DNA of 64,000 nucleotides, from positions 190,268 through 254,267 of IMG/VR virus record IMGVR_UViG_3300022902_000004. One strand, given 5' to 3'. The notes beneath the pieces are model-generated. The model worked only from the letters and a program-made list of their open reading frames with translations. It was not told where the DNA came from and did no database searches. The stretch is from a virus. Shown piece after piece: positions 16,573-45,514 of the stretch (the stretch's first letter is position 1; every line of letters begins with the position of its first letter). Position numbers and translations under genes: made by a program.

Positions 16573-17745
16573 TTATGCCTCCGTGACCGGTAATATACAT
16601 CGCATATACGCTTCAATTATCGCATCGATGCTATGGGTCTTTTTGAGTGTAGATGACAGTTCCTTTGCCGAAACCGTCAGGCTCTCCTTGTTTTTCAGTA
16701 CCTTGACAAGCTTTTTCTTGAAGTTGCCACCGCGGACGTCTGCCCATTTTGCACCGGGAACAAAAATTCGATTGTCAATTCTAGATTGTGGAATGCGTAC
16801 CATATCATAATGCACGCGTTGAAAACTGTCGCCTGACAGGAATTCCGTGTATGCCGACCAATCCGTCGCTACGATTGGTAAACCTGCAACTGCGGCCTCA
16901 ACCATTGGAAGACCAAAGCCTTCTCCACGGGTAGCTGAAATCAGCGCTGTCAGCTTTTCGCTCTTATACAGGTTCGTCATTTCTTCTCTGGTCATGGAAC
17001 CATGAAGCATATACAACTTTGGAAATGATTTCTTGTTTATTGACTTCTTGATTTGACCTAGGAGCTTTCTTACCAACTCTCGATCGATTGTAGTGTCACG
17101 GCCCTTCGTTGTTTTCACAATCAAACCGACATCATCTTTCTCACTGAACGCCTCTAGGAACCACGTAATCGATGCAACAAGATTTTTCCTGTCTGCCGCG
17201 GGGTCATCTGAAATCAGAGTTCCAACGATCAGAAAGTTGTTTGATGTCGGTAATGATTCGAGTGGATCCGACGTTGGAGGAAGAAGAAGCTCAGGAAAGA
17301 ATGCTTCCGGAACAACCTTGATTGGCGTCTTTTCGTTTCCTGTCGAAACCATTATCATCCCGGCTTTTGCATGAGCGCTTGGGACAATCACCAAGTCCAT
17401 CTTTTCTCGACAAACAGTTCCCCATTCGACTGAACATCTGTCTGTTTCTACGCCGGCGGTGATTCCAACATTGAAATGGCCCAGATCGGGATTCCATTCA
17501 TGTGGCAATTGGATCTGGATGGTGATGTCAAATTTCCCTTCCATAGGTTTTGACTTCTCCATGATCCTGCCGTAAATTCCATTTTCAAAATCAGAATTGA
17601 CACACCATGCAGTAATACCCCATGGCAGCACCTCAGTTGTCAGGTTCCAATCGCTTTGGGTTTCACAAAACTGGAAAACCTGGCGGGAATGAACTCCGTA
17701 TCCACTCTGGCTCAACAATGGCGCACGAATCAAAACGTTTTTCAT
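16573..17745 (-). CDS. Glycosyltransferase, GT-B fold (GT4-like)
   Basis: C-terminal EGFGLPMVEAAVAGLPIVATDWS motif (E-x7-E) typical of GT1/GT4 retaining transferases. Confidence 0.7.
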   Translation of the reverse strand: MKNVLIRAPLLSQSGYGVHSRQVFQFCETQSDWNLTTEVLPWGITAWCVNSDFENGIYGRIMEKSKPMEGKFDITIQIQLPHEWNPDLGHFNVGITAGVETDRCSVEWGTVCREKMDLVIVPSAHAKAGMIMVSTGNEKTPIKVVPEAFFPELLLPPTSDPLESLPTSNNFLIVGTLISDDPAADRKNLVASITWFLEAFSEKDDVGLIVKTTKGRDTTIDRELVRKLLGQIKKSINKKSFPKLYMLHGSMTREEMTNLYKSEKLTALISATRGEGFGLPMVEAAVAGLPIVATDWSAYTEFLSGDSFQRVHYDMVRIPQSRIDNRIFVPGAKWADVRGGNFKKKLVKVLKNKESLTVSAKELSSTLKKTHSIDAIIEAYMRCILPVTEA

Positions 17746-18995
17746 TATGCAATCTCCTCAATCGTAAACTTGTTATCAAATTTCCAATCATCGCATAGCT
17801 TTTGTAATGATTCATGCCAAAGGTCGATGGTTGTCTCCAGTTTGAACTCAGACGTCACGTATGCTTTTGCCTTAGTACCCAACACCTTTCGGGCTTCGGG
17901 ACCCATGCTGTACATCTGATGAAGCCCATTGGCCACAGATTCAGTTCCCACATAGTCCTCGTATATATAAGGCACCATCTGAGAGCCTACCAGCGATTGT
18001 GTTTCGACTTCAAGGGCGATGCCGTTTTCTGAGCCATCGCGGTGGTCGATGACCTGTCTTGTCAGACCGCCTGTCTTCACGGCAATAATTGGATTTCCAA
18101 CCTGCATTGATTCGAGGGTTGTCAAACCGAAACCTTCGGCGTACGAAATGTTCAGGCAGCAATCTGTAATGTTGTGCAGAACATTCATTTGTTCAAAGTT
18201 TGTGCGCTGGGTTGAGAACACGACACTGTCAATGATTCCAAACTTCTCGGCGATGACCAGCAGGTTCGGTCCTTCCTGATCCAGCGGGTCAGTATGCATT
18301 AGCAATGTCGCGTCTGATTTCCCTTCTTTCTCAAGCTTCTTCATGAACTTCGACCATGCCTCTAAAACGTCGGCCGGTCTTTTCCGCCTTGCGTTTCTGT
18401 TGGCCCAAAAAACAATGAAGTGATTTTCACGTTCGGCGCCGAGTGTATGTCGTCGGTGTTCCAAGATTTCGTTTTCAGGTAGAGGAAAGAAAATCTCATC
18501 GGGAAGAGCATGAGGAACAAAGTTCGCCTTCCCCGGAATAATCTCGTTTACCATTTCATATGTTAGGTGGCTGTGGCAATTGACCAAATCTGTCGCTTCA
18601 TAAAGAACCCGATTGAATTCTGGAGTTGGGCGGTTATCCCACACATGCCAGTATGCAATCGGGCAAATCTTGTTGATTTCGTCGTGCATCTCCCAGATAT
18701 AAATGAAGAATCGTGGGTCCGTAAAGAGCAGGAGAACGTCTGGTTTTTCGGCAGCCAAGGTTTGAAGAATCAGTTCTCTATTTCCAAAACCGTCGATGGG
18801 CTTGATTATGAAGTCAGGATTCACGACGACAGTTTCATAATTGTCGTGTTTCTGGGCGGCGCCAAACTGCCGAATCGACCAGCACCCTTTTTCCAAAAGG
18901 CCGTTGATCAAAAACCTACTTTGACAACCAACGCCCGAGGAGCTCAAGGCATGATCTGACAACATCAATATTTTCTTTTTTTGTACTTGCATCAA
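17745..18995 (-). CDS. Glycosyltransferase, GT-B fold (GT4-like)
   Basis: EGFGLTTLESMQVGNPIIAVKTGG motif. The track start is a TTG, and the in-frame ATG at 18992 is the more likely start. Confidence 0.7.
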   Translation of the reverse strand: MMQVQKKKILMLSDHALSSSGVGCQSRFLINGLLEKGCWSIRQFGAAQKHDNYETVVVNPDFIIKPIDGFGNRELILQTLAAEKPDVLLLFTDPRFFIYIWEMHDEINKICPIAYWHVWDNRPTPEFNRVLYEATDLVNCHSHLTYEMVNEIIPGKANFVPHALPDEIFFPLPENEILEHRRHTLGAERENHFIVFWANRNARRKRPADVLEAWSKFMKKLEKEGKSDATLLMHTDPLDQEGPNLLVIAEKFGIIDSVVFSTQRTNFEQMNVLHNITDCCLNISYAEGFGLTTLESMQVGNPIIAVKTGGLTRQVIDHRDGSENGIALEVETQSLVGSQMVPYIYEDYVGTESVANGLHQMYSMGPEARKVLGTKAKAYVTSEFKLETTIDLWHESLQKLCDDWKFDNKFTIEEIA

Positions 18996-19080
18996 TACAA
19001 TACTATCTTGCTATTCGATGATAGTAAAATACCGTGTTACATCGCGGCGAGCGTGAATAATATCATAGTAAAGGAGAAAA

Positions 19081-19569
19081 ATGAGAAACTACTTACAGGT
19101 TGACTCAGACATGATATACCACCAAGTCCTGGTCGAGGAACCTACAACAATTTTTCACTGGTCAAGACGTCCCGGTGATTTTCTCGATGAAAAAACAGGG
19201 ATACTTTCGCCAATGATAATGGAGTGGAGCGGGAATGTCCGTGAATGGTACGAAGGTCTAACCGATACTATTTCTCGTGCATTCTGTGATATGACATCGA
19301 ATCTTCATGGTGATGGGATGGCCCGCGGGATCGTCGTATCACCCCTGGCAGCCACAATAATTGAATTTTCTCTAAGTTTCAGGACGGACATCTCGAGTCC
19401 CAAAATCATTAGTCGTGGCAAATTCGCCATGATTGGGTTCCTTCGCGGGGTGCCGGTTTATGTCATAAACACCAGTGATCATGATATATGCACTTTGTTT
19501 GTCATGGGTTGCGATTTGTGTAAAACCATGAAAGTCGGTCGCGTTTCGATTGCCCATATGAATGCCTAG
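19081..19569 (+). CDS. Hypothetical protein (isolated plus-strand gene)
   Basis: A strong SD (AAAGGAG) lies 7 nt upstream of the ATG. The 162-aa ORF fills the gap between minus-strand genes. Confidence 0.55.
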   Translation: MRNYLQVDSDMIYHQVLVEEPTTIFHWSRRPGDFLDEKTGILSPMIMEWSGNVREWYEGLTDTISRAFCDMTSNLHGDGMARGIVVSPLAATIIEFSLSFRTDISSPKIISRGKFAMIGFLRGVPVYVINTSDHDICTLFVMGCDLCKTMKVGRVSIAHMNA

Positions 19570-20447
19570 AACAACTGAACATACCCTTTACAATGCTCGG
19601 TGTTTGCGAACTCGCAGAACTTGCATGAGTATCTGTTCTTCAGCGTGAACTCGGCTTCCATGTTTTTCAACATGTTGATGACCATCTTTTCGGCTTTCGC
19701 CATGACCTTCGGTCCTGATGATACTTCAACCATCGACACTGATTTACCTGGCTTTGCTTCACGGTGGAGAAGAACGTATGCTGTTTTCACATCCCGAGAT
19801 TTCTTTCCTGTGTGGCGCATCCAGAAATGCTTGTAAAGAATGACCTGAGCTAATGTCAAGAAGTCTTGCTTCTTTCTTCGCTGCCAACCATATCGTCCTG
19901 CTGTTTTCCAGTCGATGATGACATGTTTTCCATTGGGAAGTTCAATCACGCAATCGATGTAGCCCTTGAAGTGACCGGTCGTCTTCAAAACGTCAGCATA
20001 CAACATATGTTCCGCTTCGACAGTCTTCCACCCAGGAAATGTCTTTTCCATGAAATCAGGGAGCTGTGTTAGGGCATTCGTTGCCGATTCCAGCCAACCT
20101 GGAAGTTCGACATGTTTGTATTTCCAACCTTGAGCCCTGGCTCTCGCCGTTTGTTCCTTGATCCATTCCTCATCATCAAATCCTCGTTTCTTCCAGGCTT
20201 CCTTGATTTTCTCATGGACTGCCGGGATGTCTATCGTTCTTGTATTGAGGAAACTCTCGCCACCATCGTGGACGATTGTACCATAATCCAAATATGGGCT
20301 TATGATTTCCTCATCTGATGCTGGAATATACAAAAGGTCATGGCGCCATCCACAACCTGCCCAAGTACTAACTTCAGAATATGAGACGTGTGGTTTTCCG
20401 TTTCTTAGCAACGGAAGTGAGGGATCGATTGTTACTTTCTTTTTCAT
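19566..20447 (-). CDS. Cas4/RecB-family PD-(D/E)XK nuclease with Fe-S cysteines
   Basis: Carries GYIDCVIEL and IIDWKTAG (D..E.K / DYKTG-type) nuclease motifs. An N-terminal Cys (AGCGW) plus a C-terminal CKFC…EHC cluster matches the Cas4-like 4-Cys arrangement. Confidence 0.6.
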   Translation of the reverse strand: MKKKVTIDPSLPLLRNGKPHVSYSEVSTWAGCGWRHDLLYIPASDEEIISPYLDYGTIVHDGGESFLNTRTIDIPAVHEKIKEAWKKRGFDDEEWIKEQTARARAQGWKYKHVELPGWLESATNALTQLPDFMEKTFPGWKTVEAEHMLYADVLKTTGHFKGYIDCVIELPNGKHVIIDWKTAGRYGWQRRKKQDFLTLAQVILYKHFWMRHTGKKSRDVKTAYVLLHREAKPGKSVSMVEVSSGPKVMAKAEKMVINMLKNMEAEFTLKNRYSCKFCEFANTEHCKGYVQLF

Positions 20448-20481
20448 ATTTCAATTGTATGAATATGTTGACAACTTTACA

Positions 20482-20847
20482 TTAGTCGCCTTTTTGAATC
20501 CTGTAACTGTCAGAATCGAAGTGCTGTGTTGAAAATTCGTACAACTCAGTGTCCTCGAGGGCAATCATTTGGTGTCGCATCCCTCTCGTCACGTGGAAGT
20601 TATCGCCCTTTTCCAGGATGACCTCGCAGGCATCTTCAACCTCGTCCCATTCCGGCGCAGAATAAAGTACCTTGATTCTCCCGGATTGTACAAAGAAAAC
20701 TTCATCCTTGAGCTTGTGATAATGCCAGGAACATCGTTTCCCTTTCACAAAAAACAGGAGCTTGCCGCAATACTCTTCGCAGTTCACAATCCATTTTTCA
20801 AAGCCCCAGCCTTTTGGGACAAATTTAATCGGCAAAGAATTCGGCAT
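20482..20847 (-). CDS. Small cupin-fold protein (sugar ketoisomerase/epimerase-like)
   Basis: 121 aa with a KGWGFEKW…SWHYH…E.FFV.SG cupin metal-binding pattern. It lies next to sugar-nucleotide genes. Confidence 0.5.
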   Translation of the reverse strand: MPNSLPIKFVPKGWGFEKWIVNCEEYCGKLLFFVKGKRCSWHYHKLKDEVFFVQSGRIKVLYSAPEWDEVEDACEVILEKGDNFHVTRGMRHQMIALEDTELYEFSTQHFDSDSYRIQKGD

Positions 20848-21145
20848 CTTTCATTCCTTTATCGTCAATGTATATGTCACCACTCGGTTTTCCTAGTCGG
20901 AGATCATGAAATTTGACTCCCCAGTCGTACAGTTGAGCCAGTGTCAAATCATAAAACTGCGTTATTGCAGCTACTTGGTTATCTTTGTTGCGGCCCATAC
21001 CTCGGGCCGTATAGATAGTAATGCTATGGCCGGATTCAAACAGCTTATTGACTCGTGCAATTCGGTCCCTGTGTGGACGCGCTACATTGTAATCACCGTC
21101 AGTTGTCGTGCACAGTGTTCCGTCCAGATCAAATACGTAGCGCAT
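20825..21145 (-). CDS. Small HAD-superfamily phosphatase (GmhB-like role)
   Basis: FDLDGTL motif I and GKPSGDIYIDD motif IV. Adjacent to the RfaE-like kinase and nucleotidyltransferase. Confidence 0.6.
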   Translation of the reverse strand: MRYVFDLDGTLCTTTDGDYNVARPHRDRIARVNKLFESGHSITIYTARGMGRNKDNQVAAITQFYDLTLAQLYDWGVKFHDLRLGKPSGDIYIDDKGMKDAEFFAD

Positions 21146-21527
21146 TTATTGCCTCCGTTGATGAATGCGTTCCTATCCTAGGAAAATAGTCGACCTCAGC
21201 CAAATGTGAGCCAACAACCCGCCTTCCGTCATACTCGCTGCCGACAACGATTTTGTCGGCTTTCCAGTTTTCGATTTCTTGGCACATTTCTTCATCCGAG
21301 CCGTAACACACAACGACATCAACACATTCCAATGCACGAAGCATTCTCATCCTGTTCACAAGATCATTGTGGGGTCGGAGGGGTCCCTTGTTTTCAGAGA
21401 CCCTCTCATCGGTATCGACACCAACGACAAGAAATTGGCCTTTGCTTTTTGCGTATTCCAACATTGCAAGATGTCCCACGTGCAAAATATCGAAGCATCC
21501 ATTTGTCCAAATGACGGTTGGGCTCAT
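21129..21527 (-). CDS. Cytidylyltransferase-family nucleotidyltransferase (HldE/RfaE domain II-like)
   Basis: TNGCFDILHVGHL is the HxGH nucleotidyltransferase signature. Size (132 aa) matches the stand-alone RfaE domain II. Confidence 0.7.
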   Translation of the reverse strand: MSPTVIWTNGCFDILHVGHLAMLEYAKSKGQFLVVGVDTDERVSENKGPLRPHNDLVNRMRMLRALECVDVVVCYGSDEEMCQEIENWKADKIVVGSEYDGRRVVGSHLAEVDYFPRIGTHSSTEAINALRI

Positions 21528-22264
21528 ATCGTTGATACCCCTTTTTTCTGGACAACGATTGATGCAATTTCATTTCCCTTTTCAATAGCAGCCTGAACAT
21601 CACCTGTTTCAGTAAATGTCTTTGCGAATGCAGAAACGAATGAGTCACCAGCACCAGCAGAATCAACTCGATTCACCGTTGGCGTTGGATACACAGTTCC
21701 TCGATACATTGCACCACGAGGGCCCAATGTCACGATTAGATTTTCAATGATGTCTTCACCAAGAACTGATTTTGTACGTGCATACTCCGTCTCATTGATT
21801 TTGATGAATGAGATTGAATATGCCCATTCACCAAGAATCTTTTTTGTATCGAGGATTGAGATTTTCGATTTGCGCCCGATGAAGTTGATTTGATTCGTCG
21901 ACAACCAGCCTTTGTCATAATCAGATATCACGACGCAATCATATTTCGAGAAATCAATACCTCGAAGCAGGGCGTTACCATACTTTTCATCGTTCTCGTC
22001 GACCCTGAGGAACATATGATTCGATTTCGTTTCTACGTAACGAATCTTCTTGATACACTCGGCATTATCATTTGTGTATAGCTCCGTATCGCAACCCAAA
22101 ACTCTCATGTTGGCGGCAACATTTGAAGCCATCCCAAGGTTCTCAACACTTTTGATGCTATTGAAAACAGGAACTGGCGACTCCGGGGCGAGTCGCACTA
22201 CGTTGCCGTATACGAAGACGTCCAAACATGATTCACCAATTACTAAAAATTTCATAGCACACAC
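21524..22264 (-). CDS. PfkB-family sugar kinase (HldE/RfaE domain I-like)
   Basis: PfkB signature GAGDSFVSAF near the C-terminus. It overlaps the nucleotidyltransferase gene by 4 nt. Confidence 0.7.
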   Translation of the reverse strand: MCAMKFLVIGESCLDVFVYGNVVRLAPESPVPVFNSIKSVENLGMASNVAANMRVLGCDTELYTNDNAECIKKIRYVETKSNHMFLRVDENDEKYGNALLRGIDFSKYDCVVISDYDKGWLSTNQINFIGRKSKISILDTKKILGEWAYSISFIKINETEYARTKSVLGEDIIENLIVTLGPRGAMYRGTVYPTPTVNRVDSAGAGDSFVSAFAKTFTETGDVQAAIEKGNEIASIVVQKKGVSTI

Positions 22265-23442
22265 TTGACAAGGTCGCAGATTCTATCGATGTCTTCCGTA
22301 CCTAACTCTGGATTGTTGGGTAAAAAGAACCCACAATCATGAATCTCATCTGAAACGGGATGACTAAACTCACCGTATTCCGCCTTCCAGAATGGGTGCT
22401 TTCCTAAGTTTCCTGCGCTGAAGATTCTTGTTTCGACGCCGGCAACCCGTAGCATCTTCACAATTTTCGTTCGTTGTGCCTTGTCTTTTGCCAGGAGACC
22501 AAACGAGATTGAGACCGGCTTGTTGGTTCCCCAATCTTGAAACTTGAAAGTTCCTCGTAGGTTTTCCGCGTAGCGCTTGTGATTTCTCTCTCTGGCCTCT
22601 GATACCCAAGGTGCTTTCTTGACCTGGTCGATTCCAATGAATGCCTGTAAGTCTGTCGCCCTCAAGTTGAATCCTGGAACGAAGAATGTGAACGGTTTGT
22701 GGAAGTCATCAACTCCATTTTCTTCAACCAACCCGTCGTACACTGACTCATCAAGATCCTTTCCCCAGCCGTGACTTCGGAGCATGAGCAACATTTGGTA
22801 TGTTTCGAAATCGTCGGTGTTCACCATACCACCTTCAATTGTCGCCAACTGATGCCCAAAGTAGAATGAGAAGCTCGACATTTTGCCAACCGTTCCCACC
22901 TTCTTGCCGTTTGCATATTCAGCACCGAGAGCTGCGCAGCCGTCCTCAAGCAAAGTGAAGTTGTATTTCTTTGAGAGGGCATGCAATCTTTCAGCGTCAT
23001 GCGGGATACCGAGAACCTGCACAAAAATTACCGTTGCCGGATCCTCTTCGATACACACTTTTTCGAGGTCGTCGAGATCGATTCCATACGTTTTTGCATC
23101 GGCGCCAACCATGATCGGGTCGAAACCAAATTGCATGAATGGTGCGATTGTTGTGACCCATCCCACCGATGGGACGACGACCTTCATGTTTCTTGGCTTT
23201 GCAACCTTTGCGGCGTACGCCATCAGCAGGTTTGCAGAAGAGCCGGAGTTGCAAAACACAGAGTACTTCGTACCGATGTATTTCGCCCATGCTTTCTCAA
23301 ACTTTACCGTTAGTTCGCCCTTTGTCAGGCGAGGATATGTTTTCAGCCAATTGATAAGATTATCGATATCGTGATCGCTAATCGTATCTTTTGCCAGTGG
23401 GTACTCAATTTTATTCATCAATTTTCTCCATCCAATATTCAA
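22252..23442 (-). CDS. DegT/DnrJ/EryC1-family PLP/PMP enzyme, ColD-like 3-dehydratase
   Basis: Fold-type I sugar aminotransferase motif SFSFYFGHQLATIEGG. A His occupies the position of the Schiff-base Lys, as in GDP-4-keto-6-deoxymannose 3-dehydratase ColD and the E1 dehydratases. Gmd lies directly downstream. Confidence 0.6.
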   Translation of the reverse strand: MNIGWRKLMNKIEYPLAKDTISDHDIDNLINWLKTYPRLTKGELTVKFEKAWAKYIGTKYSVFCNSGSSANLLMAYAAKVAKPRNMKVVVPSVGWVTTIAPFMQFGFDPIMVGADAKTYGIDLDDLEKVCIEEDPATVIFVQVLGIPHDAERLHALSKKYNFTLLEDGCAALGAEYANGKKVGTVGKMSSFSFYFGHQLATIEGGMVNTDDFETYQMLLMLRSHGWGKDLDESVYDGLVEENGVDDFHKPFTFFVPGFNLRATDLQAFIGIDQVKKAPWVSEARERNHKRYAENLRGTFKFQDWGTNKPVSISFGLLAKDKAQRTKIVKMLRVAGVETRIFSAGNLGKHPFWKAEYGEFSHPVSDEIHDCGFFLPNNPELGTEDIDRICDLVKCVL

Positions 23443-29271: not shown

Positions 29272-29279
29272 TTTACCCT

Positions 29280-35154: not shown

Positions 35155-35656
35155 TCGCCTCCTTCATCCACTCCCCCATCCAATTATAATGAGGAGATGA
35201 AATGATGTTGTCAGACATAACGACAGGCTCTCGCGAATAAACAGCACCTGCGTTTGTAATGTCATCTTCAAGACTGTAATAGCCAGAAATATCTCTTCCC
35301 TTTACAACCTTCGCGGATATTAATAATTGCGCGCCATGACATGTACTAGCGATTATTTTTCCGGCAGCATCCCATTCATGAACAAATCTAAGTATTTTTT
35401 TATCTTGTCGTAATTTTTCCAACGCCTTAACACCGCCTGGCAAAATTAAAAAATCATATTTATTAAAAATCTCGTCATACCTCACTGACAAGTCAGACAC
35501 GTTTAGGTCTGCATTCATTTTCGTGCCCATAATGCCAAAAATCACTTCCTTGTTTGCCATAATTGAAACGTTTGGCGTTTCTTCTCGGCACCTATAATAA
35601 GGATAAATTACTTCGTGATCCTGGTATCCTTCCCATGTAATAATCAATGCTTTCAT
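35123..35656 (-). CDS. DJ-1/PfpI-family protein
   Basis: Collinear with Pyrococcus PfpI: YPYYRCREE, LILPGG, the nucleophile elbow IASTCHGAQLLISA, then KGR and ITNAG. Confidence 0.75.
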   Translation of the reverse strand: MKALIITWEGYQDHEVIYPYYRCREETPNVSIMANKEVIFGIMGTKMNADLNVSDLSVRYDEIFNKYDFLILPGGVKALEKLRQDKKILRFVHEWDAAGKIIASTCHGAQLLISAKVVKGRDISGYYSLEDDITNAGAVYSREPVVMSDNIISSPHYNWMGEWMKEAIDAYSRKERL

Positions 35657-35658
35657 AT

Positions 35659-37182
35659 TTACTTTTCATCCCCAAGCAGTTTTCGCTTTAGTTTTATTTT
35701 CGATGTTTCTTCTACATCATTTCTTGCTTTTATACCAAATTTTTGTTCAAGTAATTCCAGATATGGTTTATGTTTGTGATATTTCATCCAAGCTTTATCA
35801 CGAAAATCCAAAATTTCAGATGCCGTCAAATTGTCAGTCGCCAAATTTAATGTATTATATGAATGTTGGCTATAGCCATCATATGAGTTAGGCAAGCATA
35901 GTTCATTCTTTTTTGCGTCCATGTAAAGAGGGCTTCCAGGATATGCCATGGCAGAATATACGTTTACCATCTCTGTGAGATTTTCCATGGCAAAGTCCAA
36001 GGTTTCTTGCATCGATTCAGCAGTATCCATTGGCAGTCCAAAAATATAATTTGCGCCAATATTGATTCCGGCGTTGCGCATGTCAGTCATGACATCATTG
36101 ATTCTTACTTCCTTAAAGCTATCTTTATGCACATATTTTCGCAAAACCGTATTTGGATTTTCAATTCCCAAGCCCAGCCAATTTATACCGGCACGTTTTA
36201 ATTTGTCAAGATATTTCGGTTTGCATGTGTCTATTCGCGAATATGCCCAAATATTAAACTTATAACCACGTGAAATGATAAGATCGCAGATTGCTTCAAA
36301 GTGTCGTGGGTTTAAAACAAATAGTTCATCTGCGATCTTAACGTTCTTAACGCCCATTTTAGCAAAATAATCGAATTGCTCAATAATAAAATTAGGATCC
36401 CAATATCTAAACTTATTGCTGTCAGCGCTAGTAATGCCGGCACGATTGTCTGTCCTGTTAATAATATTAATCATACAAAATGAACATCGGTACGGACAGC
36501 CCAATGATGTATATAGTGCGGCGAAGGGTGTTTTGTCAGAATCATTTGACCATGAGTGCCATCCTGCAGTTCTATATTTAGAAAAATCAGGTAGTAGATC
36601 CCATGCCATACCAGGCAAATCTGTTTCCATTAATGCTTGTGGAACAATTCTGGACGCACGATTTATAACAATATTATTCTCGACATTACGAAAGCCAAGA
36701 CCTGACACTTTCTCTAGCTGTTTTTCATCCTTTAGGTTTGTTACAGCCAATAAATCGCGGATTGCATATACACCCTCATTTAAACAGATTGCATTAATGG
36801 CAGGCTCGTCAATGAGGCTTTTCGTAGGCAGCGCGGCTACATGGCCCCCTACAAATAAAATGAACGAATTCGGATCTTCGTTTCTTAAGCTAGCAGCCAC
36901 AGCTGTGGCTGCTGACATATTCTGTGAAGATGCACTAGGTTGCTGGCCGTAAACAACAAAACAAACAATCCTGGAATTATATTCGATAATCTGTGCAACT
37001 GTCTCTTTATCAGTCAATTGGTTTACTTCAGCATCCAAAATTGCTGGTGAAAAACCAACTGATCGGACAGAGTTTGCTAAAAGAGCAGCCCATATCGGGG
37101 GTTCAATTGCAGAATGTCGCGAACTTAAATCTTGATATACTATCTTCGAAGAATTTGTATGTACAAATAAAATATCAATCAC
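35659..37182 (-). CDS. Cobalamin-binding radical SAM enzyme (class B)
   Basis: N-terminal B12-binding-like domain followed by a GCPYRCSFC CxxxCxxC radical-SAM cluster motif. 507 aa. Confidence 0.75.
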   Translation of the reverse strand: MIDILFVHTNSSKIVYQDLSSRHSAIEPPIWAALLANSVRSVGFSPAILDAEVNQLTDKETVAQIIEYNSRIVCFVVYGQQPSASSQNMSAATAVAASLRNEDPNSFILFVGGHVAALPTKSLIDEPAINAICLNEGVYAIRDLLAVTNLKDEKQLEKVSGLGFRNVENNIVINRASRIVPQALMETDLPGMAWDLLPDFSKYRTAGWHSWSNDSDKTPFAALYTSLGCPYRCSFCMINIINRTDNRAGITSADSNKFRYWDPNFIIEQFDYFAKMGVKNVKIADELFVLNPRHFEAICDLIISRGYKFNIWAYSRIDTCKPKYLDKLKRAGINWLGLGIENPNTVLRKYVHKDSFKEVRINDVMTDMRNAGINIGANYIFGLPMDTAESMQETLDFAMENLTEMVNVYSAMAYPGSPLYMDAKKNELCLPNSYDGYSQHSYNTLNLATDNLTASEILDFRDKAWMKYHKHKPYLELLEQKFGIKARNDVEETSKIKLKRKLLGDEK

Positions 37183-37919
37183 TGCTTGTCTCCAATTGCT
37201 TGTTTAAGTTTCTCAATTGATGCTTGGCGCTCTGCAACCATTTCGTCAGACCTGAATAGCATTTCATTGTTATCATTTCTTCTGCGCAATTCAGCCAACA
37301 TTGTTGTTTCATCCACAGCGCTCTTCCCTTGCGTCCAATGCATATGTTCTATAACAAGATCTTTTACGAAAATGTTTCTATTCACAGCTTTTGCTAATTC
37401 AAACATCCATGCGTCTGACCAGTCAGCTGTGAAATACGGAGGTGATGCATACCCTAATAACTCTATCCAGTTCCTATGTAAGCCGTAATGTGTTGCAAAG
37501 CCCTCATCATGCACGCCATCGCAACCATAAACTAATGCCAATCGATCATCATATTTTTCAAACGCTTCGTCAATTAATAAATCCCATCCTTTAGTTCTCA
37601 TAATTGTGTCATCACCAAATTGCATCATAACATCAACGTCAGAATTATTGAAAAGAACATTATATGTGTCAGAAAGTGGCCTTACATCATGCTTGTCAAT
37701 AAATAGGTGAATTGGAATCGATGATTGGGGACCAACTTTTTTAATGAAATTTATTGTCGCTTCATCGTCATTGTCAATGTATAAATGAAATGAAATGCGT
37801 TCCGGCTTGGCTGCTAATGAAACAACACTATCCATCAATCGAGCCAACATTTTGACACGTTTTCTTGTAGGACAAAAAATCCCAATTTTGAAATTAGTAG
37901 TTGGCATACCATGGCTCAT
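37179..37919 (-). CDS. Hypothetical protein (possible GT-A-like, DxD)
   Basis: 246 aa with YIDNDDE and DxD-like segments. Weak call. Confidence 0.35.
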   Translation of the reverse strand: MSHGMPTTNFKIGIFCPTRKRVKMLARLMDSVVSLAAKPERISFHLYIDNDDEATINFIKKVGPQSSIPIHLFIDKHDVRPLSDTYNVLFNNSDVDVMMQFGDDTIMRTKGWDLLIDEAFEKYDDRLALVYGCDGVHDEGFATHYGLHRNWIELLGYASPPYFTADWSDAWMFELAKAVNRNIFVKDLVIEHMHWTQGKSAVDETTMLAELRRRNDNNEMLFRSDEMVAERQASIEKLKQAIGDKQ

Positions 37920-38871
37920 CTAAAATATCATATGCTGACTGAACCTGTTTGATTCCCGTCTTCAAATCGATCTTGCACTCAAATCCTAAATCGTAGATTT
38001 TCTGGCTGCTGACGATGTAATCACGTTTGTCTGGATCTTTGAAATTCTCATTCACGTAAATCTCGCACGGAATAACTTCGGCAATTTGTTTTGCCAATTC
38101 CATTTTTGTGCAATTTAGGGCATCGTTGCCGACATTGAACACTTGGTCTTTGCATTCAGCCCAGTTATCAACAACGAACCTGAACGCTGCACAAACATCT
38201 TGGATATGCACATAGTTTCGCTTGAATGAGTCCTCATAAAGAACAAGCGCTTTTTCCTTCATTGCCTTCAACGTAAAATTGTTGATAAGCAAATCTGATC
38301 GCATTCTTGGAGAGGGTCCATATACTGTTGCTAGACGAAGTGTTGTGCACCCCGGGGTTGCAATAAAGGCCTTTTCCGCGTCGACCTTCGTCGTGCCGTA
38401 TAACGTAATTGGTGTCATCGGTGACTCTTCAGTACAAACCTCGCCCGCATTGGCGTTTCCGTAACCAGAATTTGTGCATGGGTATACAACAATTTGATTA
38501 GGTTGCTTAATTGATGCAATGAATGTGTTTGCCGTTGCATTAATCTCGACGGCACCTCTTTCGTCATCGCGACATAGCGGAAAGCCGACTAATGCAGCCA
38601 ATGGAACAATGATGTCTGCATCATTAACTAGTTTCGTTAATAATTTAGTGTCGCGGACGTCACCCTTCACAAATTCGAAATTTTTATGTGTTAAGTACGG
38701 AAGAAGACTAGTTTTATCATACATTAATGAGTCGATGACCGTGACCTTATGATCATGCAGGAACCATGGAATCAACGAACTGCCAATGTATCCTGCTCCA
38801 CCTGTAATAAGTACTTTTTTCATTGTTTCCCCCAGCTGATTTCCCAGTCTTTGAAGTCTGCTGCAAGACAA
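37894..38871 (-). CDS. NAD-dependent sugar epimerase (SDR; HldD/GalE-like)
   Basis: MKKVLITGGAGYIGSSL Rossmann motif and YGTTKVDAEK (YxxxK). Confidence 0.7.
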   Translation of the reverse strand: MSCSRLQRLGNQLGETMKKVLITGGAGYIGSSLIPWFLHDHKVTVIDSLMYDKTSLLPYLTHKNFEFVKGDVRDTKLLTKLVNDADIIVPLAALVGFPLCRDDERGAVEINATANTFIASIKQPNQIVVYPCTNSGYGNANAGEVCTEESPMTPITLYGTTKVDAEKAFIATPGCTTLRLATVYGPSPRMRSDLLINNFTLKAMKEKALVLYEDSFKRNYVHIQDVCAAFRFVVDNWAECKDQVFNVGNDALNCTKMELAKQIAEVIPCEIYVNENFKDPDKRDYIVSSQKIYDLGFECKIDLKTGIKQVQSAYDILDEPWYANY

Positions 38872-39233
38872 TCGATTTTGTAGTCTTTACGTCCGCCCAC
38901 TTTTTCCTGGATTTTGTTTTTTGCTGTGTTTCTAATCCCGTTCAGGCCATGGGTCAATTCAAGGTCATTCCCTTCACCAATCCCTTTCCTGTAATTTGTT
39001 TCATTGTGCCAAATATGTAAATTCATTTGTGACAAAACTACAATAGCACGAACAACGTCGGCAGAGAACTTCAGATCCTCATTTTCAGCCAACAATTGAA
39101 TGTCGTGCAAAATGTCGCTAATCTCATCTGCATACTCTGCTTTGTGTTCGACAATGAACACCTCTTTTAGTTGTGCGATTGACAACCTGTCAACCAACTC
39201 AGAAAGTGTTGGAAGATATTTCCTATCCGTCAT
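38820..39233 (-). CDS. Hypothetical protein
   Basis: 137-aa ORF in the operon. No recognisable motif. Confidence 0.35.
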   Translation of the reverse strand: MTDRKYLPTLSELVDRLSIAQLKEVFIVEHKAEYADEISDILHDIQLLAENEDLKFSADVVRAIVVLSQMNLHIWHNETNYRKGIGEGNDLELTHGLNGIRNTAKNKIQEKVGGRKDYKIDCLAADFKDWEISWGKQ

Positions 39234-40212
39234 CTTGACCCCTTATTTTGTCTAGTAGTGTATGAACGTTTTTACGGTATTCTGCATGCGAAAATCGTGT
39301 GGAGGATTGATGTTGGACCCTCTCATTCAAATTTAACTCTCGCAGGATTGCGTTCATTGTATTATAGTAATCACTTACGACCGTTTTTTCATCTTTCCAT
39401 TCGATCCATTCATTCATAACCTGCGAATTCTTACAAATAGCTTCATCGGCGACAGGAATTGTGAGATTATATGGTGTCCCGATCACACAGGAACCCAGGT
39501 TTTGGGCTTCCATCTGGGCAAGACTGCAATAGTCCTCGATACAGAACCATGCCGTTACTTTTGCGTTTGAACAGGCCCGGAGATAATCTTCATTTTCGTA
39601 CGACCCATAATTGATAATTTTGTATGTGAGACCGTCATGCTCAAGTTTTTCGCAGAACATCGTCGCCATTTTGAATGATTTACCATCATTGACCCTGTCT
39701 TTCACATAAACCAAAACGTCGATATCACGGGACTTGTTTACAGGCTGAATCATCGGAAGTTCATAGCAATATTCCAGGGTTTCGCAGCGTTTGATACCCT
39801 TGGCGAATTGCTTCACGTGGTTTGTGTAGTAATCGGCAACATTGAGATTCACATCGGCACCGGATTCTTCCAGGTACCATCGTTCCCAGTCATCAGTGAT
39901 GCCCTTGTCAGCACGTTCCATCACAACATTAGGACCGCCGATGAAAGGAATTCCAGCTTCTTTAGCTCGTGCCAAGATGATTGGCTGGAATCTCACGTAG
40001 GCCCATACAAAATCAAATTTTGAGAAACCGTTTGGGTCGTCCCAAATATCCTGTGTCAAATCAACCAGCTCGAAATCCGGATGATTCAGAGCCTGAGCAT
40101 GATGTGAATACCCGACGCCTGGTCCAAAGGTGGTTGGTTTTGAAACGGCCAAGATCCTAATCTTCTTTTTCACATCTCCTCCTTGTTGGTGGATGTGTTT
40201 CTGCGGTAGCAA
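39223..40212 (-). CDS. Glycosyltransferase-like protein (GT-B fold)
   Basis: C-terminal EDYCSLAQMEAQNLGSCVIGT resembles the GT4 E-x7-E motif. Confidence 0.45.
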   Translation of the reverse strand: MLPQKHIHQQGGDVKKKIRILAVSKPTTFGPGVGYSHHAQALNHPDFELVDLTQDIWDDPNGFSKFDFVWAYVRFQPIILARAKEAGIPFIGGPNVVMERADKGITDDWERWYLEESGADVNLNVADYYTNHVKQFAKGIKRCETLEYCYELPMIQPVNKSRDIDVLVYVKDRVNDGKSFKMATMFCEKLEHDGLTYKIINYGSYENEDYLRACSNAKVTAWFCIEDYCSLAQMEAQNLGSCVIGTPYNLTIPVADEAICKNSQVMNEWIEWKDEKTVVSDYYNTMNAILRELNLNERVQHQSSTRFSHAEYRKNVHTLLDKIRGQDDG

Positions 40213-40913
40213 TATAGTTTTTCATTCAGGATGACTGTTCGGCCCACAAGTGCCGTGGCCCTGAAATTGAAATCTGAGTCTTCGCTTAGGAGCACTCGTG
40301 TTTTTGTTCCTGGCGGATTGAACCTGATGCCTACATCCCAAAGTCCACGAACAAACATTGCCGATGCACCTGCTGTTTCGTATGGGCCGGTGTAGAAATG
40401 GTTGATGCCTGGTGTGCTGAGGCCTGTGAGCACGTGCTGGCGGACTTCATCAGCTTCAATTATGTTCAGAACCGGATCCTGGTTTATTTTCTTTGACCAG
40501 CACCTATCTATGTCTTCCTGACTCCAACAATGATAAAAGCCTGTCAGGACATGCTGTGTATTTGGGACAGTCATAAACACACGGACTTGCCTTTCAATCC
40601 TGTCTGCCAGACATATGTCGTCGGCGTCTAGTGTTGTGATAAGCGTGCAACCTGTTTTTTCGATTGCATAATTTAGTGCATACCATTTTCCGCGATTTTC
40701 TGGGAGTTCATGATAAACAATCCTGTCATCCAAATGCATAAACGCTTCGACCATTTTGCGGACAATAGGTTGATCGTCAGATCCATCGTCGACAACGACA
40801 ATTTCAAGATCTTTGTGTGTTTGATCTCGGGCTGACTGGATGCTTTCATCGAGGTACTGTGAGTGATTATAGTTTGCAATGATAATACAGACTTTCATCG
40901 TACGCCTTCCCAT
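40170..40913 (-). CDS. Family-2 glycosyltransferase (GT-A)
   Basis: MKVCIIIANYNHSQYLDESIQSARDQTHKDLEIVVVDDGSDD is the canonical GT2 N-terminus with DxD. Confidence 0.7.
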   Translation of the reverse strand: MGRRTMKVCIIIANYNHSQYLDESIQSARDQTHKDLEIVVVDDGSDDQPIVRKMVEAFMHLDDRIVYHELPENRGKWYALNYAIEKTGCTLITTLDADDICLADRIERQVRVFMTVPNTQHVLTGFYHCWSQEDIDRCWSKKINQDPVLNIIEADEVRQHVLTGLSTPGINHFYTGPYETAGASAMFVRGLWDVGIRFNPPGTKTRVLLSEDSDFNFRATALVGRTVILNEKLYCYRRNTSTNKEEM

Positions 40914-41131
40914 GCTGATGTGTCAATTCTTTCGCCCTCTCTAAGGATCCTGATGTTATGTTTTTTCTCTAAATCTCTCAGTCGTGCATCTTCTTTTCGG
41001 GTTTTTGTGGCTTCTCGTTCATACTTTATATTATAACAAAAACGTTCTAGCTTGCGGAAATCATTTGGGTTCATAGTCGAGATCCATTTTTGTTCTAATA
41101 GGTTGAACTCTTTTTGTTGTGCTTCATCCAT
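40895..41131 (-). CDS. Small hypothetical protein
   Basis: 78-aa ORF bridging two glycosyltransferase genes. Confidence 0.3.
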   Translation of the reverse strand: MDEAQQKEFNLLEQKWISTMNPNDFRKLERFCYNIKYEREATKTRKEDARLRDLEKKHNIRILREGERIDTSAWEGVR

Positions 41132-43076
41132 TATTATTTTCCATTATCTTTGGATGTCCGCACTCAACCGTTATTGACGGCGTCGGCTTTGAGAAGTCTA
41201 CCGGATTATGGAAAACCCATCCTCCCATTTTCTCCTCGAGTTCTTTGGCCAACGAGGTAATCTCTTCGTCAGAAACTTCAGCCCATGGCTTCTGGAAGAA
41301 CATATTGTTCTCCGCCGTGTCTTCCTGTTTGACATTATACAATGATTGCCAATGTGAGCTCCAATAATCACGGTACGTTCGAATTTTCCTTTCCAGGTTT
41401 CGCCATGAGTAATGGTGGACACCAGGCAGCAATTCTGTGCAACGATTGAACCATTCAGCATACGCCGCCAATGCATCAACATTTCCTTGTAAGGCTGCGA
41501 CTCTGGCATTGTGAGCACCTTCATTGTAGAAGCTGGCATGTGGAATCAGTTCGAGCGTGTCTTTATGAATGAAATCGCAACCGTCACTGCCTGGGAGTGA
41601 GTACAAATCTCCTGCTTCATCGGTTTGTCTTAGGTTGCCAGGAATACCGTGTGTGATGTGTGGTAGGTTCCTTGACAAGCGCCATTTCCACGGGTTGACA
41701 TCAATGCGGACCTTTCCTCCACTACCCCAATATTCTGTGACCGGTAATGAAACCAAATCCGTGTAGTTGGGGAAATTTAGAACTGTTTTTCTGATTTTGT
41801 CGTAATCGTTTTCATGGACGATCTCGTCGGCATCTTGTTGCCAACAGAAATCACCTGTGCAGAGACTTCGAGCCCTTGCCTTTTGTTCGCCGTCGAAGAC
41901 TGCAAATCGTGGATGATCCCAATCTAACTTTTTCTGCTTGACAGTAAGTCCGTTGGTGTGCCTTGCCCATGTGGAAAGCTCATGCCACGTATCGTCTGTT
42001 GAGCCGCCGTCTACAACAATTACTTCGTCACAGAAATTGAGCATTGACAGAATAGCCTCACGGAATGGGTAACCCTGACGGAAACAGTCTTTCGTTGTCA
42101 TGTAGCCTGAAATTGTTGGCTTGTAGTTCATTTCGTCTTGGATCTGCTTCCAAAACAAATCGCGGGAGGCGTATAGATATTCTTCGATCTCCAGTATATT
42201 ATCTGTTGCGAACCATTCCTCGTCTCGGTGCTGAACATATTCGTTGAGTACCAACTCGCAGCCCAACAATTTTGCTTCGATGACCATTCTCGGGCATGTA
42301 TCTTTTCCTCGTGGTAGATATACGAACCCCTTTGCCTCTGAAAGTTTGAGGAGTGTTTCGTGGTGAGACAGACCCCAAACTACTTCGTATTCATGCCCTT
42401 GATCGATACACCACTGCTTTGCCTGATCGGCACCCTTCACCCATGAGCCTGAGCCTAACACGATCCATTTTGTTCTGTTTTTGTTCTTGGAACCGTGCCT
42501 GATGAGTTTGAAGTTGACGAACGTTTCATCATCGAAAACTGAGCTCAGCACGCAGTTCTTTTTCTGCGCCAAAAATGGAAACTTACTAAAATAGTGGTTC
42601 TGCTGAGCTTCGCTCATCCACCAAAGTGACTTGGCACCAAAGTAGAATGCTGAAATCATCTTTCCAACTTCAGCTTCATGACAGTTACATTCTTCCTGTT
42701 CAGCAAAAAGATGTTTTTCTGGTGATCTGTATCTGCAATATTTGTAGTCGTATTCTAGGACACTGTATTTCAGGTTTGCGACGATGGTAGGAACCAACCT
42801 GACATCTAGCGCAGCAAAGTTTCCAAAAATCCAGTATTTTGAGGCACCGTCTTTCAGAAGATCAATGTCAACATCTCTCGACAATATTTTCTGAGTCTTC
42901 ATTGGAGCGTTTTTGATTAGAGCCTCAGTTGTCAGCTCAGCTCCGCCTGAGTATGTTTCAACGAACATATCCGCTACAAAGATTACCTCAGTTTCATCAT
43001 TGATTGAGACTGCTTTTTTGTTGTTGCCAAAAGGACTGATCAACTGCATATTAGTTTCCCTAAAGTTAGTATACAC
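41124..43076 (-). CDS. Two-domain glycosyltransferase (N-terminal GT-B-like + C-terminal GT2)
   Basis: 650 aa. The C-terminal half has a GT2 signature (EVIVVDGGSTDDTWHEL…DxD). The N-terminal ~330 aa has a Rossmann-like GT-B character. Confidence 0.6.
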   Translation of the reverse strand: MYTNFRETNMQLISPFGNNKKAVSINDETEVIFVADMFVETYSGGAELTTEALIKNAPMKTQKILSRDVDIDLLKDGASKYWIFGNFAALDVRLVPTIVANLKYSVLEYDYKYCRYRSPEKHLFAEQEECNCHEAEVGKMISAFYFGAKSLWWMSEAQQNHYFSKFPFLAQKKNCVLSSVFDDETFVNFKLIRHGSKNKNRTKWIVLGSGSWVKGADQAKQWCIDQGHEYEVVWGLSHHETLLKLSEAKGFVYLPRGKDTCPRMVIEAKLLGCELVLNEYVQHRDEEWFATDNILEIEEYLYASRDLFWKQIQDEMNYKPTISGYMTTKDCFRQGYPFREAILSMLNFCDEVIVVDGGSTDDTWHELSTWARHTNGLTVKQKKLDWDHPRFAVFDGEQKARARSLCTGDFCWQQDADEIVHENDYDKIRKTVLNFPNYTDLVSLPVTEYWGSGGKVRIDVNPWKWRLSRNLPHITHGIPGNLRQTDEAGDLYSLPGSDGCDFIHKDTLELIPHASFYNEGAHNARVAALQGNVDALAAYAEWFNRCTELLPGVHHYSWRNLERKIRTYRDYWSSHWQSLYNVKQEDTAENNMFFQKPWAEVSDEEITSLAKELEEKMGGWVFHNPVDFSKPTPSITVECGHPKIMENNNG

Positions 43077-45513: not shown

Positions 45514-45514
45514 T

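Follow-up and report, generated by a model that had tools for sequence, protein, structure and literature searches.

What do the large sets of lipopolysaccharide (LPS)-like genes carried by lytic marine phages glycosylate? Such gene sets have long been known, and to our knowledge nobody has shown what they glycosylate. The question is raised here by a stretch of viral DNA of 64,000 nucleotides (hereafter the window; positions 190,268 to 254,267 of IMG/VR virus record IMGVR_UViG_3300022902_000004), in which an island of nucleotide-sugar and glycosyltransferase (GT) genes occupies positions 16573-43076 on the minus strand. The metagenomic contig carrying the window is 184.5 kb long and has many viral relatives in IMG/VR. 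Comparison with these relatives reveals a conserved phage glycosylation locus, with the island as its variable centre, in a very abundant, uncultured lineage of marine myoviruses. Protein similarity places Flavobacterium phage immuto, Microcystis phage Mel-JY01 and Rhodothermus phage RM378 among the distant relatives of this lineage.

The island contains 29 minus-strand open reading frames (ORFs) that abut or overlap in the ORF listing, together with one plus-strand ORF. This agrees with a preliminary description of the locus, made from the nucleotide sequence alone, which had counted about 30 contiguous minus-strand genes. Gene families were assigned using Pfam and NCBIfam profile searches, sequence and profile searches of the PDB, and a hydropathy scan, and most of the ORFs proved to be nucleotide-sugar enzymes or GTs, as that description had proposed. 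Gene order was then compared in two synteny sets, consisting of 17 loci anchored on the GT gene GT4a and 79 loci retrieved with the 650-residue GT650 as the query (individual loci carry the prefix L). The order of a PD-(D/E)XK nuclease (NUC), GT4a, a second GT gene (GT4b), a small membrane protein, a sigma-like factor and the baseplate genes is kept in all 17 GT4a-anchored loci, and gene content varies upstream of the nuclease. From the 79 loci the full frame reads PhoH, s114, one or more fibre genes, GT650, the variable block, NUC, GT4a, GT4b, the 98-residue membrane protein tm98 and the sigma-like factor. The frame thus recurs around a variable centre in at least 65 viral contigs.

The variable block, which runs from GT650 to the nuclease, holds 24 genes in 20.7 kb of the window. 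It is empty in L044, L069 and L084, and also in L096, where GT650 is cut by the contig end; it holds one or two genes in L085, L053, L058 and L059, and 6-11 genes in L081, L078 and L092. GT650, GT4a and GT4b persist where the block is empty. The pan-genome of the island was assembled from the 65 of the 79 loci with a full-length GT650 plus the window; most blocks run past the visible 10 kb, and the one IMG/VR contig on which the block is visible from both sides has a block of 13.6 kb. The resulting 670 ORFs fall into 220 families, 132 of which are singletons. At the other extreme, L120 has the same island gene order as the window at 44-80% identity, lacking DJ-1, the bicupin and the second thiamine-diphosphate (ThDP) E1 pair, and with an RmlC-like gene in place of Gmd and Fcl. 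Such conservation of synteny at this level of divergence points to selection on the gene set as a unit, and the combination of stable types, cassette swaps and conserved flanks gives the locus a serotype-like behaviour.

The upstream edge of the variable block is formed by GT650 (41124-43076, minus strand), for which a structure model predicts a GT-B-like N-terminal domain (residues ~31-310), a GT-A/GT2 domain (~322-560) and a helical C-terminus. The nearest solved fold to this model is SunS, a peptide GT, and a fold search in BFVD returned generic multi-domain GTs only. GT650 has at least 84 IMG/VR relatives at 42-62% identity and belongs to 2,647 protein clusters in metagenomes, while tblastn found no match in GenBank phages. 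Among 185,579 species genomes there is a single match, a 100%-identical 2.85-kb contig binned in a metagenome-assembled genome (MAG). By this distribution of homologues GT650 is a phage-specific and very abundant gene. In a more distant clade (L098-L107, L112 and L114) it is split into separate genes for the N- and C-terminal domains, and in most of these loci a PD-(D/E)XK nuclease lies between the two halves and is thus still embedded among GTs.

The downstream edge is formed by NUC (19566-20447, minus strand; Pfam PDDEXK_1, E-value 4.5e-19), which closes the variable block and adjoins GT4a and GT4b in all relatives, as well as in phages immuto and Mel-JY01. This ORF had been counted as a member of the sugar island and is a nuclease instead. 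It is followed by two core GT-B enzymes on the minus strand, GT4a (17745-18995; Glycos_transf_1, E-value 3.7e-12) and GT4b (16573-17745; Glycos_transf_1, E-value 2.2e-8, with a GT4-conflict score of 31 bits, above the Pfam cut-off). Homologues of GT4a occur at 48-97% identity in the 17 IMG/VR loci and at 24-32% identity in immuto, Mel-JY01, RM378 and LR756508, the immuto homologue aligning at 30% identity across 97% of the length. In relatives GT4b always follows GT4a, although it went undetected in L032. An additional 341-residue ORF without a counterpart in the window lies between GT4a and GT4b in L016 (6442-7467), a relative at 95-97% protein identity, and in L009 (3425-4450), so even this conserved pair is a site of microdiversity.

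Besides these three enzymes, the island encodes a TuaG/EpsE-like GT2 (40170-40913, minus strand; Pfam Glycos_transf_2, E-value 1.4e-25; NCBIfam TuaG, E-value 1.9e-20) and three paralogues of about 270 residues on the same strand, which are probably GT-A-like GTs. The first (25904-26728) and third (29280-30095) were recognized by paralogy and by profile comparison with the PDB, and the second (26686-27489) by paralogy and a weak Pfam GT2 match (E-value 7.8e-4). All three conserve DD and GGF..FE motifs, and their top PDB profile matches are all GT-A enzymes (TarS, E-value 0.0024). The total is therefore seven GT genes with eight domains, four of the genes robust and three probable, which falls at the low end of the 8-10 GTs first estimated.

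No island ORF in the window has more than one hydrophobic segment in the hydropathy scan, and no Wzx, Wzy, Wzz, ABC permease or exporter, initiating transferase or ligase was found in the island. The scan thus agrees with the preliminary description, which had listed export and initiation genes as missing, and because there is no multi-pass membrane protein, the absence of Wzx, Wzy, an ABC permease and an initiating transferase is real. The same holds across the lineage, where three or more hydrophobic segments occur in none of the 670 island ORFs from the 65 relatives and the window. Loci for bacterial O-antigens and capsules usually carry several multi-pass membrane proteins. A complete lack of such proteins is hard to square with repeated capture of envelope cassettes, unless the phage has no use for export genes, and it favours an acceptor that is supplied by the phage in the cytoplasm. 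The simpler argument offered earlier, that soluble GTs must have a cytoplasmic acceptor, is invalid by itself. Most O-antigen GTs are also soluble or peripheral and act on lipid-linked acceptors, so that solubility leaves an envelope target possible.

A second argument concerns the breadth of conservation. The trio of nuclease, GT4a and GT4b is retained as far afield as phages of Bacteroidota, Rhodothermota and Cyanobacteria, and a GT set that is conserved across hosts with different envelopes would suggest a conserved acceptor supplied by the phage. Because of these conserved, phage-specific GTs, the lack of multi-pass membrane proteins among 670 ORFs and the SunS-like fold of GT650, a phage protein, and specifically one of the virion, is ranked first as the glycosylation target, a tentative choice that stops somewhat short of even chances. 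In the proposed mechanism, the seven or more soluble GTs would assemble the sugars of the island in the cytoplasm of the infected cell. The acceptor would be phage-encoded, the likeliest candidate being a protein on the virion surface, for example the neighbouring fibre. Of the glycan itself, a shared inner part would come from the conserved GTs and a lineage-specific outer part from the variable block. The full form of this proposal is advanced with somewhat more reserve. It holds that an abundant group of marine tailed phages coats a virion protein, most likely the fibres, with an O-antigen-like glycan that is primed by GT650, GT4a and GT4b, and that a swappable cassette of 0-24 genes, acquired partly from bacteria such as SAR11, writes the strain-specific outer part.

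The same membrane-protein evidence bears on the possibility that the island remodels the host envelope. Unusual sugars would be added to undecaprenyl-linked or lipid A-core intermediates of the host, and host flippases, polymerases and ligases would complete their export, changing the cell surface so as, for example, to block superinfection or prevent re-adsorption of progeny. This explanation is considered somewhat unlikely. The best family matches are to envelope-glycan enzymes (TuaG, RfbH/ColD, the EcbF/BcbF capsule phosphatase and HldE), part of the island is 49-66% identical to a Pelagibacter sugar cluster, a single-pass membrane protein is conserved after GT4b, and transcription signals of early or middle type would suit host takeover. 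No initiating transferase, flippase, polymerase, ligase or ABC exporter, however, is found among the 670 ORFs of the 65 relatives or the window, and core GTs that are conserved and phage-specific over hosts of very different envelopes would be unexpected if the acceptors were hypervariable host structures. The known O-antigen-converting phages are temperate and use the membrane proteins GtrABC and Oac, and we know of no lytic phage that has been shown experimentally to remodel the host envelope in this way. In the literature, the analogous islands that pelagimyophages and cyanomyophages carry are interpreted as serving envelope remodelling (PMC7029224; PMC12801897).

The conservation of the trio in cultured phages also bears on a DNA target, which had been named as the alternative in the preliminary description. 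The GTs would then glycosylate a modified base as protection against restriction, as in the arabinosyl-5-hydroxycytosine phages. Phage DNA-glycosylation clusters contain AfhE/AfhF, a GmhB-like phosphatase and GT4-like GTs, the same logic as that of the cassette at 20482-22264 (PMC13326640). A nuclease sits in the midst of the conserved GTs, the expression signals are of early or middle type, and GT4b exceeds the Pfam GT4-conflict threshold. Yet the DNA of immuto_2-6A, a phage with the homologous trio and sugar genes, was found by liquid chromatography with UV and tandem mass-spectrometric detection to contain canonical dA, dC and dT and, in place of G, fdPreQ1; the study reports no glycosylated nucleoside (PMC10516641). 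Pfam tables and a motif scan covering the window and 10 kb on either side (~100 kb of the contig lies outside the scan) show no thymidylate-synthase-like hydroxylase or hydroxymethylase, and at least seven GTs and at least four sugar routes far exceed any known DNA glycan. DNA hypermodification is thus disfavoured, chiefly by the nucleoside data on immuto, and is regarded as very improbable.

Several observations weigh against a virion-protein target, and some of them concern timing. The T4 late promoter TATAAATA is absent on the coding strand of the window. A candidate late promoter of this lineage, GATATTTA(G/T), occurs four times against 0.95 expected, and all copies are intergenic, on the minus strand and just upstream of genes. 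They precede gp25 (12697-12705), the fibre operon (46186-46194, with the form GATATTTAG) and genes at 59.9 and 61.4 kb (59880-59888 and 61404-61412). Relatives retain the motif ahead of their gp25 homologues. In relaxed form its core precedes 14 of 22 gp25 homologues (64%) and 33-36% of the s114 and fibre homologues, versus two of 65 GT650 genes (3%), one of 27 GT4a genes and none of 33 NUC genes. At the junction between the fibre gene and GT650 there is instead a hairpin (43157-43194, minus strand; 14 bp, -16.9 kcal/mol), after which a sigma-70-like consensus match (TTAACA-16-TATGTT, 43135-43108) is located, and a perfect extended -10 box (TGTTATAAT, 41030-41038, minus strand) is found ahead of the GT2 gene. 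The sigma-like factor is apparently in one operon with GT4a and GT4b, and this likewise implies early or middle expression. Taken as consensus matches, these signals suggest that expression of the glycosylation genes is early or middle and that they stand outside the late structural regulon. The known virion GTs of mycobacteriophages are reported to sit in the late structural operon, and the GTs of chloroviruses are early genes.

Position and enzyme assignment give further grounds for caution. In most loci the gene immediately before GT650 is fibre-like, but in five relatives it is PhoH, with no fibre gene between. In the cultured distant relatives the NUC-GT-GT trio is located apart from the baseplate genes (immuto) or beside replication genes (Mel-JY01 and RM378). 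The earlier suggestion that synteny with fibre genes points to virion proteins therefore keeps its conclusion as the best guess, for the other reasons given above, and its argument is weakened, since the adjacency is not universal, being absent in immuto, Mel-JY01 and RM378, and the hairpin and sigma-70-like promoters part the island from the fibre operon. The margin by which the GT650 model resembles SunS rather than generic GT-A enzymes is modest. None of the sugar-pathway enzymes of the island reaches an NCBIfam equivalog cut-off, so that substrate assignments stay at the family level. GT4 and GT2 enzymes that act on undecaprenyl-linked acceptors likewise lack membrane spans, and host Wzx/Wzy or ABC exporters could finish an envelope pathway. 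Analogous islands have been read as modifying host O-chains (PMC7029224), and every assignment of a target, including that of a virion protein, is an inference.

The surroundings of the island are those of a phage. Downstream of GT4b lie tm98 (16276-16572, minus strand; a single-pass membrane protein by hydropathy) and the sigma-like factor (15533-16279, minus strand; PHROG late sigma factor, E-value 7.6e-5; RpoS-like, weakly, E-value 0.05), which abut or overlap GT4b in one apparent operon whose order is the same in all relatives. Past the sigma-like factor come gp25-like and gp6-like baseplate genes, followed by very large fibre-like proteins; the gp6-like protein matches only immuto, Mel-JY01 and one uncultured record, at 29-31%. 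On the other side of the island is the fibre operon (43312-46194, minus strand), which comprises s114, s103 and FIB733 and has the late-type motif at its head. FIB733 (43312-45513) is a 733-residue fibre-like protein rich in Gly (15.7%), Ser (10.5%) and Thr (11.3%). It has a segment in common with a 392-residue protein (451-1629) at the end of the baseplate/fibre block, and its homologues are mosaic, some carrying Peptidase_S74, YadA_head or CBM_X2 domains that are typical of fibres and adhesins. Its structure model has a mean predicted local distance difference test score (pLDDT) of 49.5 and is not usable. Past that operon come non-structural genes (PhoH, PrkA/SpoVR/DUF444, a helicase and a ClpP-type protease). 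The placement of the island inside a virion-structural region accordingly holds for the baseplate on one side and the fibre on the other, and does not extend past the fibre operon. PHROG searches gave no match for the large proteins of the left flank or the fibre, and neither the island nor the right flank matched any GenBank phage by megablast.

A bacterial LPS locus or a prophage was also considered as the source of the window and rejected, because phage hallmark genes lie on both sides of the island and GT650 is absent from bacterial genomes save for the one 2.85-kb contig. The gp25 and gp6 baseplate genes, the sigma-like factor, the ClpP-type prohead protease and the IMG/VR relatives all identify a phage, as first described.

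The variable block in the window encodes several routes to activated sugars, each recognized at the family level and all on the minus strand. The Gmd/ColD-like/Fcl route of the preliminary description is supported by Pfam, NCBIfam and the PDB. It consists of a GDP-mannose 4,6-dehydratase (Gmd, 23411-24409; Pfam GDP_Man_Dehyd, E-value 6e-106; NCBIfam gmd, 355 bits against an equivalog cut-off of 415), a DegT-family, ColD-like 3-dehydratase (22252-23442; best PDB match ColD, 2gms, E-value 1.5e-55) and an Fcl/ColC-like reductase (24409-25332), whose score with the Fcl model of NCBIfam (217 bits, cut-off 500) does not separate ColC from Fcl. The His within FYFGHQLAT of the ColD-like protein aligns with the catalytic His188 of ColD, which indicates a dehydratase rather than an aminotransferase. 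From their families, these three enzymes would make a GDP-3,6-dideoxyhexose of the colitose type from host GDP-mannose.

The split HldE-like functions were also recovered, as separate genes by profile search. They are a shortened PfkB kinase of 246 residues (21524-22264; NCBIfam rfaE domain I, E-value 5.5e-30, 104.6 bits, cut-off 345), a nucleotidyltransferase (21129-21527; rfaE domain II, E-value 3e-28, 98.4 bits, cut-off 181.5) and an EcbF/BcbF-like phosphatase of the haloacid dehalogenase (HAD) family (20825-21145; NCBIfam), followed by a cupin (20482-20847; profile match). This set at 20482-22264 is among the most recurrent cassettes of the related islands (10-19 loci). GmhA (SIS domain) is absent from all island ORFs by Pfam, and the cupin stands in the cassette instead. 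The kinase, phosphatase and nucleotidyltransferase could together supply a heptose-like nucleoside diphosphate (NDP)-sugar, the substrate being left wide because other phages activate arabinose by the same enzyme logic.

A further route may lead to uronic-acid or pentose-type sugars. The expected set of short-chain dehydrogenases/reductases (SDRs) with a UDP-glucose dehydrogenase (UGDH)-like gene is present as two further SDRs and a short NDP-sugar dehydrogenase. SDR1 (27461-28471; Pfam Epimerase, E-value 2.2e-39) is of the epimerase/decarboxylase type and matches the NCBIfam GalE, UXS and ArnA-like models, all below cut-off. SDR2 (37894-38871; Pfam Epimerase, E-value 2.7e-26) resembles NDP-sugar epimerases/dehydratases, with 62-64% identity to homologues in L119 and L120 and 43% to an SDR in a Pelagibacter cassette (L115). 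The UGDH-like enzyme (28468-29271, 267 residues; NCBIfam NDP-sugDHase, E-value 1.3e-42) has the N-terminal and central domains of UDPG_MGDP_dh without the C-terminal nucleotide-sugar-binding domain; the same short form occurs in L120, and 11 other islands have members of the family.

The remaining chemistry includes two E1 alpha/beta pairs, a B12-radical S-adenosylmethionine (SAM) enzyme and DJ-1/PfpI, all first noticed in the preliminary description and matched here by profiles. The first pair consists of short forms, E1b1 (beta, 31034-31582; Transket_pyr, E-value 5.9e-9; 70% identity in L120) and E1a1 (alpha, 31579-32253; E1_dh, E-value 1.1e-14; 72% identity in L120; GC content at third codon positions, GC3, 0.28). 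The second consists of E1b2 (beta, 32159-33106; Transket_pyr; 52% identity to the Pelagibacter L115 E1 beta) and E1a2 (33078-34469; E1_dh, E-value 4.6e-20, plus Acid_PPase; GC3 0.27), in which a HAD phosphatase is fused to a ThDP E1 alpha that is 49% identical to the E1 alpha adjoining the radical SAM gene in L115. These are followed by cup2 (34459-35154; Cupin_2, E-value 0.0057; MannoseP_isomer, E-value 0.02; GC3 0.29), DJ-1/PfpI (35123-35656; Pfam, E-value 1.3e-31), for which no homologue is seen in the other 65 islands as far as these are visible, and a HpnJ/BchE/PhpK-like B12-binding radical SAM protein (35659-37182; Pfam Radical_SAM plus B12-binding; NCBIfam HpnJ, E-value 1e-36). Two cupins had been reported; the one at 20482-20847 is clear, and cup2 is only a weak bicupin. 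Judged by these families, the ThDP-E1/B12-radical-SAM cassette would produce a C-branched or C-methylated sugar.

Much of this cassette lies in a sub-island of distinct composition. GC3 is 0.27-0.35 across 31579-37919 versus 0.40-0.56 elsewhere, and the low-GC3 block of about 6 kb spans one full E1 alpha/beta pair, the alpha gene of the other pair, the bicupin, DJ-1, the radical SAM gene and u246. Over 7,900 proteins are homologous to the radical SAM protein at 64-72% identity, among them one from Candidatus Pelagibacter sp. (66%). At a locus with a GC content of 27% in a Pelagibacter MAG (GCA_028374225.1, L115), homologues of the radical SAM protein (66%), E1 alpha (49%) and E1 beta (52%) are adjacent, and the cluster order is SIS isomerase, ThDP enzyme, radical SAM, E1 alpha, E1 beta, GHMP kinase, DegT, SDR, nucleotidyltransferase and GT2. 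Given the low GC3 and the Pelagibacter likeness, the cassette is held in common with low-GC marine bacteria and was probably acquired from them; it points to uncharacterised sugar chemistry. A SAR11 host was considered on the strength of the 66% Pelagibacter match and rejected. The phage has an overall GC content of 45%, against 27%, and only the 6-kb block is low in GC3, so the match signals gene transfer and not host identity.

This mosaic composition raises the further possibility that the island has no single product and is a 'junkyard' beside the fibre genes, in which sugar genes serve separate purposes, for instance metabolic rerouting or the making of small-molecule or lipid glycosides, with mixed or other acceptors. 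Gene content is very open, 132 of the 220 families being singletons, a low-GC3 block was probably acquired recently, an unrelated opposite-strand ORF and a nuclease lie within the interval, and the best matches of GT4a include the small-molecule GTs BshA, MshA, TreT and sucrose-phosphate synthase. On the other hand, nearly all identifiable island genes are carbohydrate-related and are overlapping or translationally coupled on one strand, the whole island is syntenic with L120 at 44-80% identity, and the conserved GT frame brackets the island in all relatives. The junkyard is considered unlikely.

How far the locus departs from known systems can be judged by comparison with the literature. Closest in content is the host recognition cluster (HRC) of pelagimyophages and cyanomyophages, a hypervariable part of the structural region with a mean length of 44.6 kb that combines tail fibres with LPS-type genes (GTs, rfaE and UDP-glucose dehydrogenase; Zaragoza-Solas et al. 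2020, PMC7029224). In both cases a large, hypervariable island is situated within or next to the structural module of a marine myovirus, with fibre genes, GTs and nucleotide-sugar genes (rfaE-like, UDP-glucose dehydrogenase and epimerases). In contrast to the HRC, which lies in a T4-like (Tevenvirinae-type) backbone between VrlC and gp14, the island here is flanked by PhoH/fibre and sigma/gp25 genes. It belongs to an unlike lineage with no GenBank nucleotide match, whose baseplate and GT4a match only immuto, Mel-JY01, RM378 and uncultured records. Its sugar genes form one contiguous block between GT650 and NUC-GT4a-GT4b with the fibres outside, and its chemistry includes ThDP E1 pairs and a B12-radical SAM enzyme. 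LPS and cell-wall gene clusters also occur in the large cyanophages P-SSM2 and S-SCSM1, and cyanophage S-SCSM2R carries 22 cell-wall genes, 13 of which are GTs (PMC12801897).

The core genome of the aquatic "moraphages", large phages with predicted Bacteroidota hosts, includes four GT orthogroups (Perez-Hernandez et al. 2025, PMC12619734). Like the present lineage they are aquatic and uncultured with a contractile tail, and their core includes a sigma factor, PhoH, gp25, gp6 and a prohead protease; set side by side by published description, the two may be the same or sister groups. The moraphage paper, however, has no GT-framed variable sugar island (PMC12619734), and the contig here, at 184.5 kb, is below the jumbo-phage threshold. 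Giant viruses offer a parallel in the capsid glycans of chloroviruses and the fibril glycans of Megavirinae (PMC10117803; PMC9614988), with virus-encoded nucleotide-sugar pathways (GMD, UGDH-type and rare bacterial-like sugars), multi-domain soluble cytoplasmic GTs and clade-specific clusters of similar scale. Their hosts are eukaryotic and their virion glycans are proven, whereas a virion glycan is a proposal in the present system, and there is no sequence kinship beyond enzyme superfamilies.

Among tailed phages, the virion glycosylation cassettes of mycobacteriophages (Freeman et al. 2023, as cited in PMC12619734) are similar in that GTs act on cytoplasmic virion proteins without export machinery. 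The difference lies in size and regulation, the present island having about 27 genes without a late-type motif upstream. Mycobacteriophage cassettes comprise 2-4 genes, and their glycans are located on capsid and tail-tube C-termini. Bacterial O-antigen and capsule loci, such as those for colitose O-antigens, resemble the island in having conserved flanks, a variable centre and the same enzyme families, but here the genome is that of a phage and Wzx, Wzy, Wzz, an ABC exporter, an initiating transferase and a ligase are lacking.

The general phenomenon of islands with fibre and LPS genes, large cell-wall gene sets and core GTs is thus already described, and the label "previously undescribed" given in the preliminary description was an overstatement (PMC7029224; PMC12801897; PMC12619734). 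Within the literature searched, the features that appear new are the three phage-specific GTs bracketing a cassette of 0-24 genes, the abundance of this arrangement, its complete depletion of membrane proteins, the ThDP-E1/B12-radical-SAM cassette common with Pelagibacter and the link to a cultured relative with non-glycosylated DNA. The three conserved GTs around a cassette of 0-24 genes provide a clean genetic frame, thousands of GT650 variants represent the lineage in ocean metagenomes, and the target question is experimentally approachable in immuto, a cultured distant relative that carries the NUC-GT-GT trio followed by GT2, WecE, methyltransferase and mannosyltransferase genes of its own. 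If the acceptor is a virion protein, marine phage particles would bear variable glycan coats, with a bearing on adsorption, aggregation, grazing and host defence. The locus would then amount to a "serotype" system of phages, equivalent among bacteriophages to the glycosylation of chlorovirus and mimivirus virions, and a purpose would have been found for the long-puzzling LPS genes of lytic marine phages.

Five island ORFs belong to no recognisable family in NCBIfam or in Pfam, the latter including matches at E-values up to 5. All are on the minus strand. The u329 protein (39223-40212), which has no Pfam, NCBIfam or PDB match, has homologues in three other islands, with 44% identity in L120. 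The small protein u137 (38820-39233; no Pfam or NCBIfam match, with Pfam searched up to the same limit) is the best-conserved protein of the island, at 80-83% identity in L119 and L120, and in relatives it accompanies an SDR, an Mpo1-like gene and a radical SAM gene. The u246 protein (37179-37919; no family match) has a GC3 of 0.33 and 59% identity in L120, and its gene marks the left edge of the low-GC3 sub-island. The u343 protein (30088-31119; no family or PDB match) is 50% identical to its homologue in L120 and 41% to that in L119. The u211 protein (25329-25964), with homologues in L017 and L120, had been called a methyltransferase, a call that the lack of any Pfam match at E-values up to 5 does not bear out.

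The plus-strand ORF of 162 residues (19081-19569) lies between NUC and GT4a and is called as a gene in L001. Only the closest relatives have it (L001 and L016, with a 120-residue form in L010), and a Pfam search gave no match. It is probably unrelated to the island and maybe a recent insertion.

Other observations concern the wider genome. A triad of a PrkA-like kinase/ATPase, SpoVR and DUF444, corresponding to the bacterial YeaG/YcgB/YeaH stress module, is located at 50368-54836 and kept throughout the lineage. PrkA homologues found by tblastn are in distant Thermus and Ralstonia phages and are uninformative on the host. On the minus strand at 63539-63609 there is a 71-nucleotide tRNA-like element, called by neither ARAGORN nor Rfam. 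Its 7-bp acceptor stem (TTCCCAA/TTGGGAA) pairs perfectly, the T-arm (CGGGG-TTCGACT-CCCCG) is canonical and CCA is encoded; the middle cannot accommodate a D arm and an anticodon arm together. Finally, outside the window, L122 has a GIY-YIG/NUMOD3 homing-endonuclease-like gene (20760-21179) after the very large fibre-like proteins, downstream of the baseplate.

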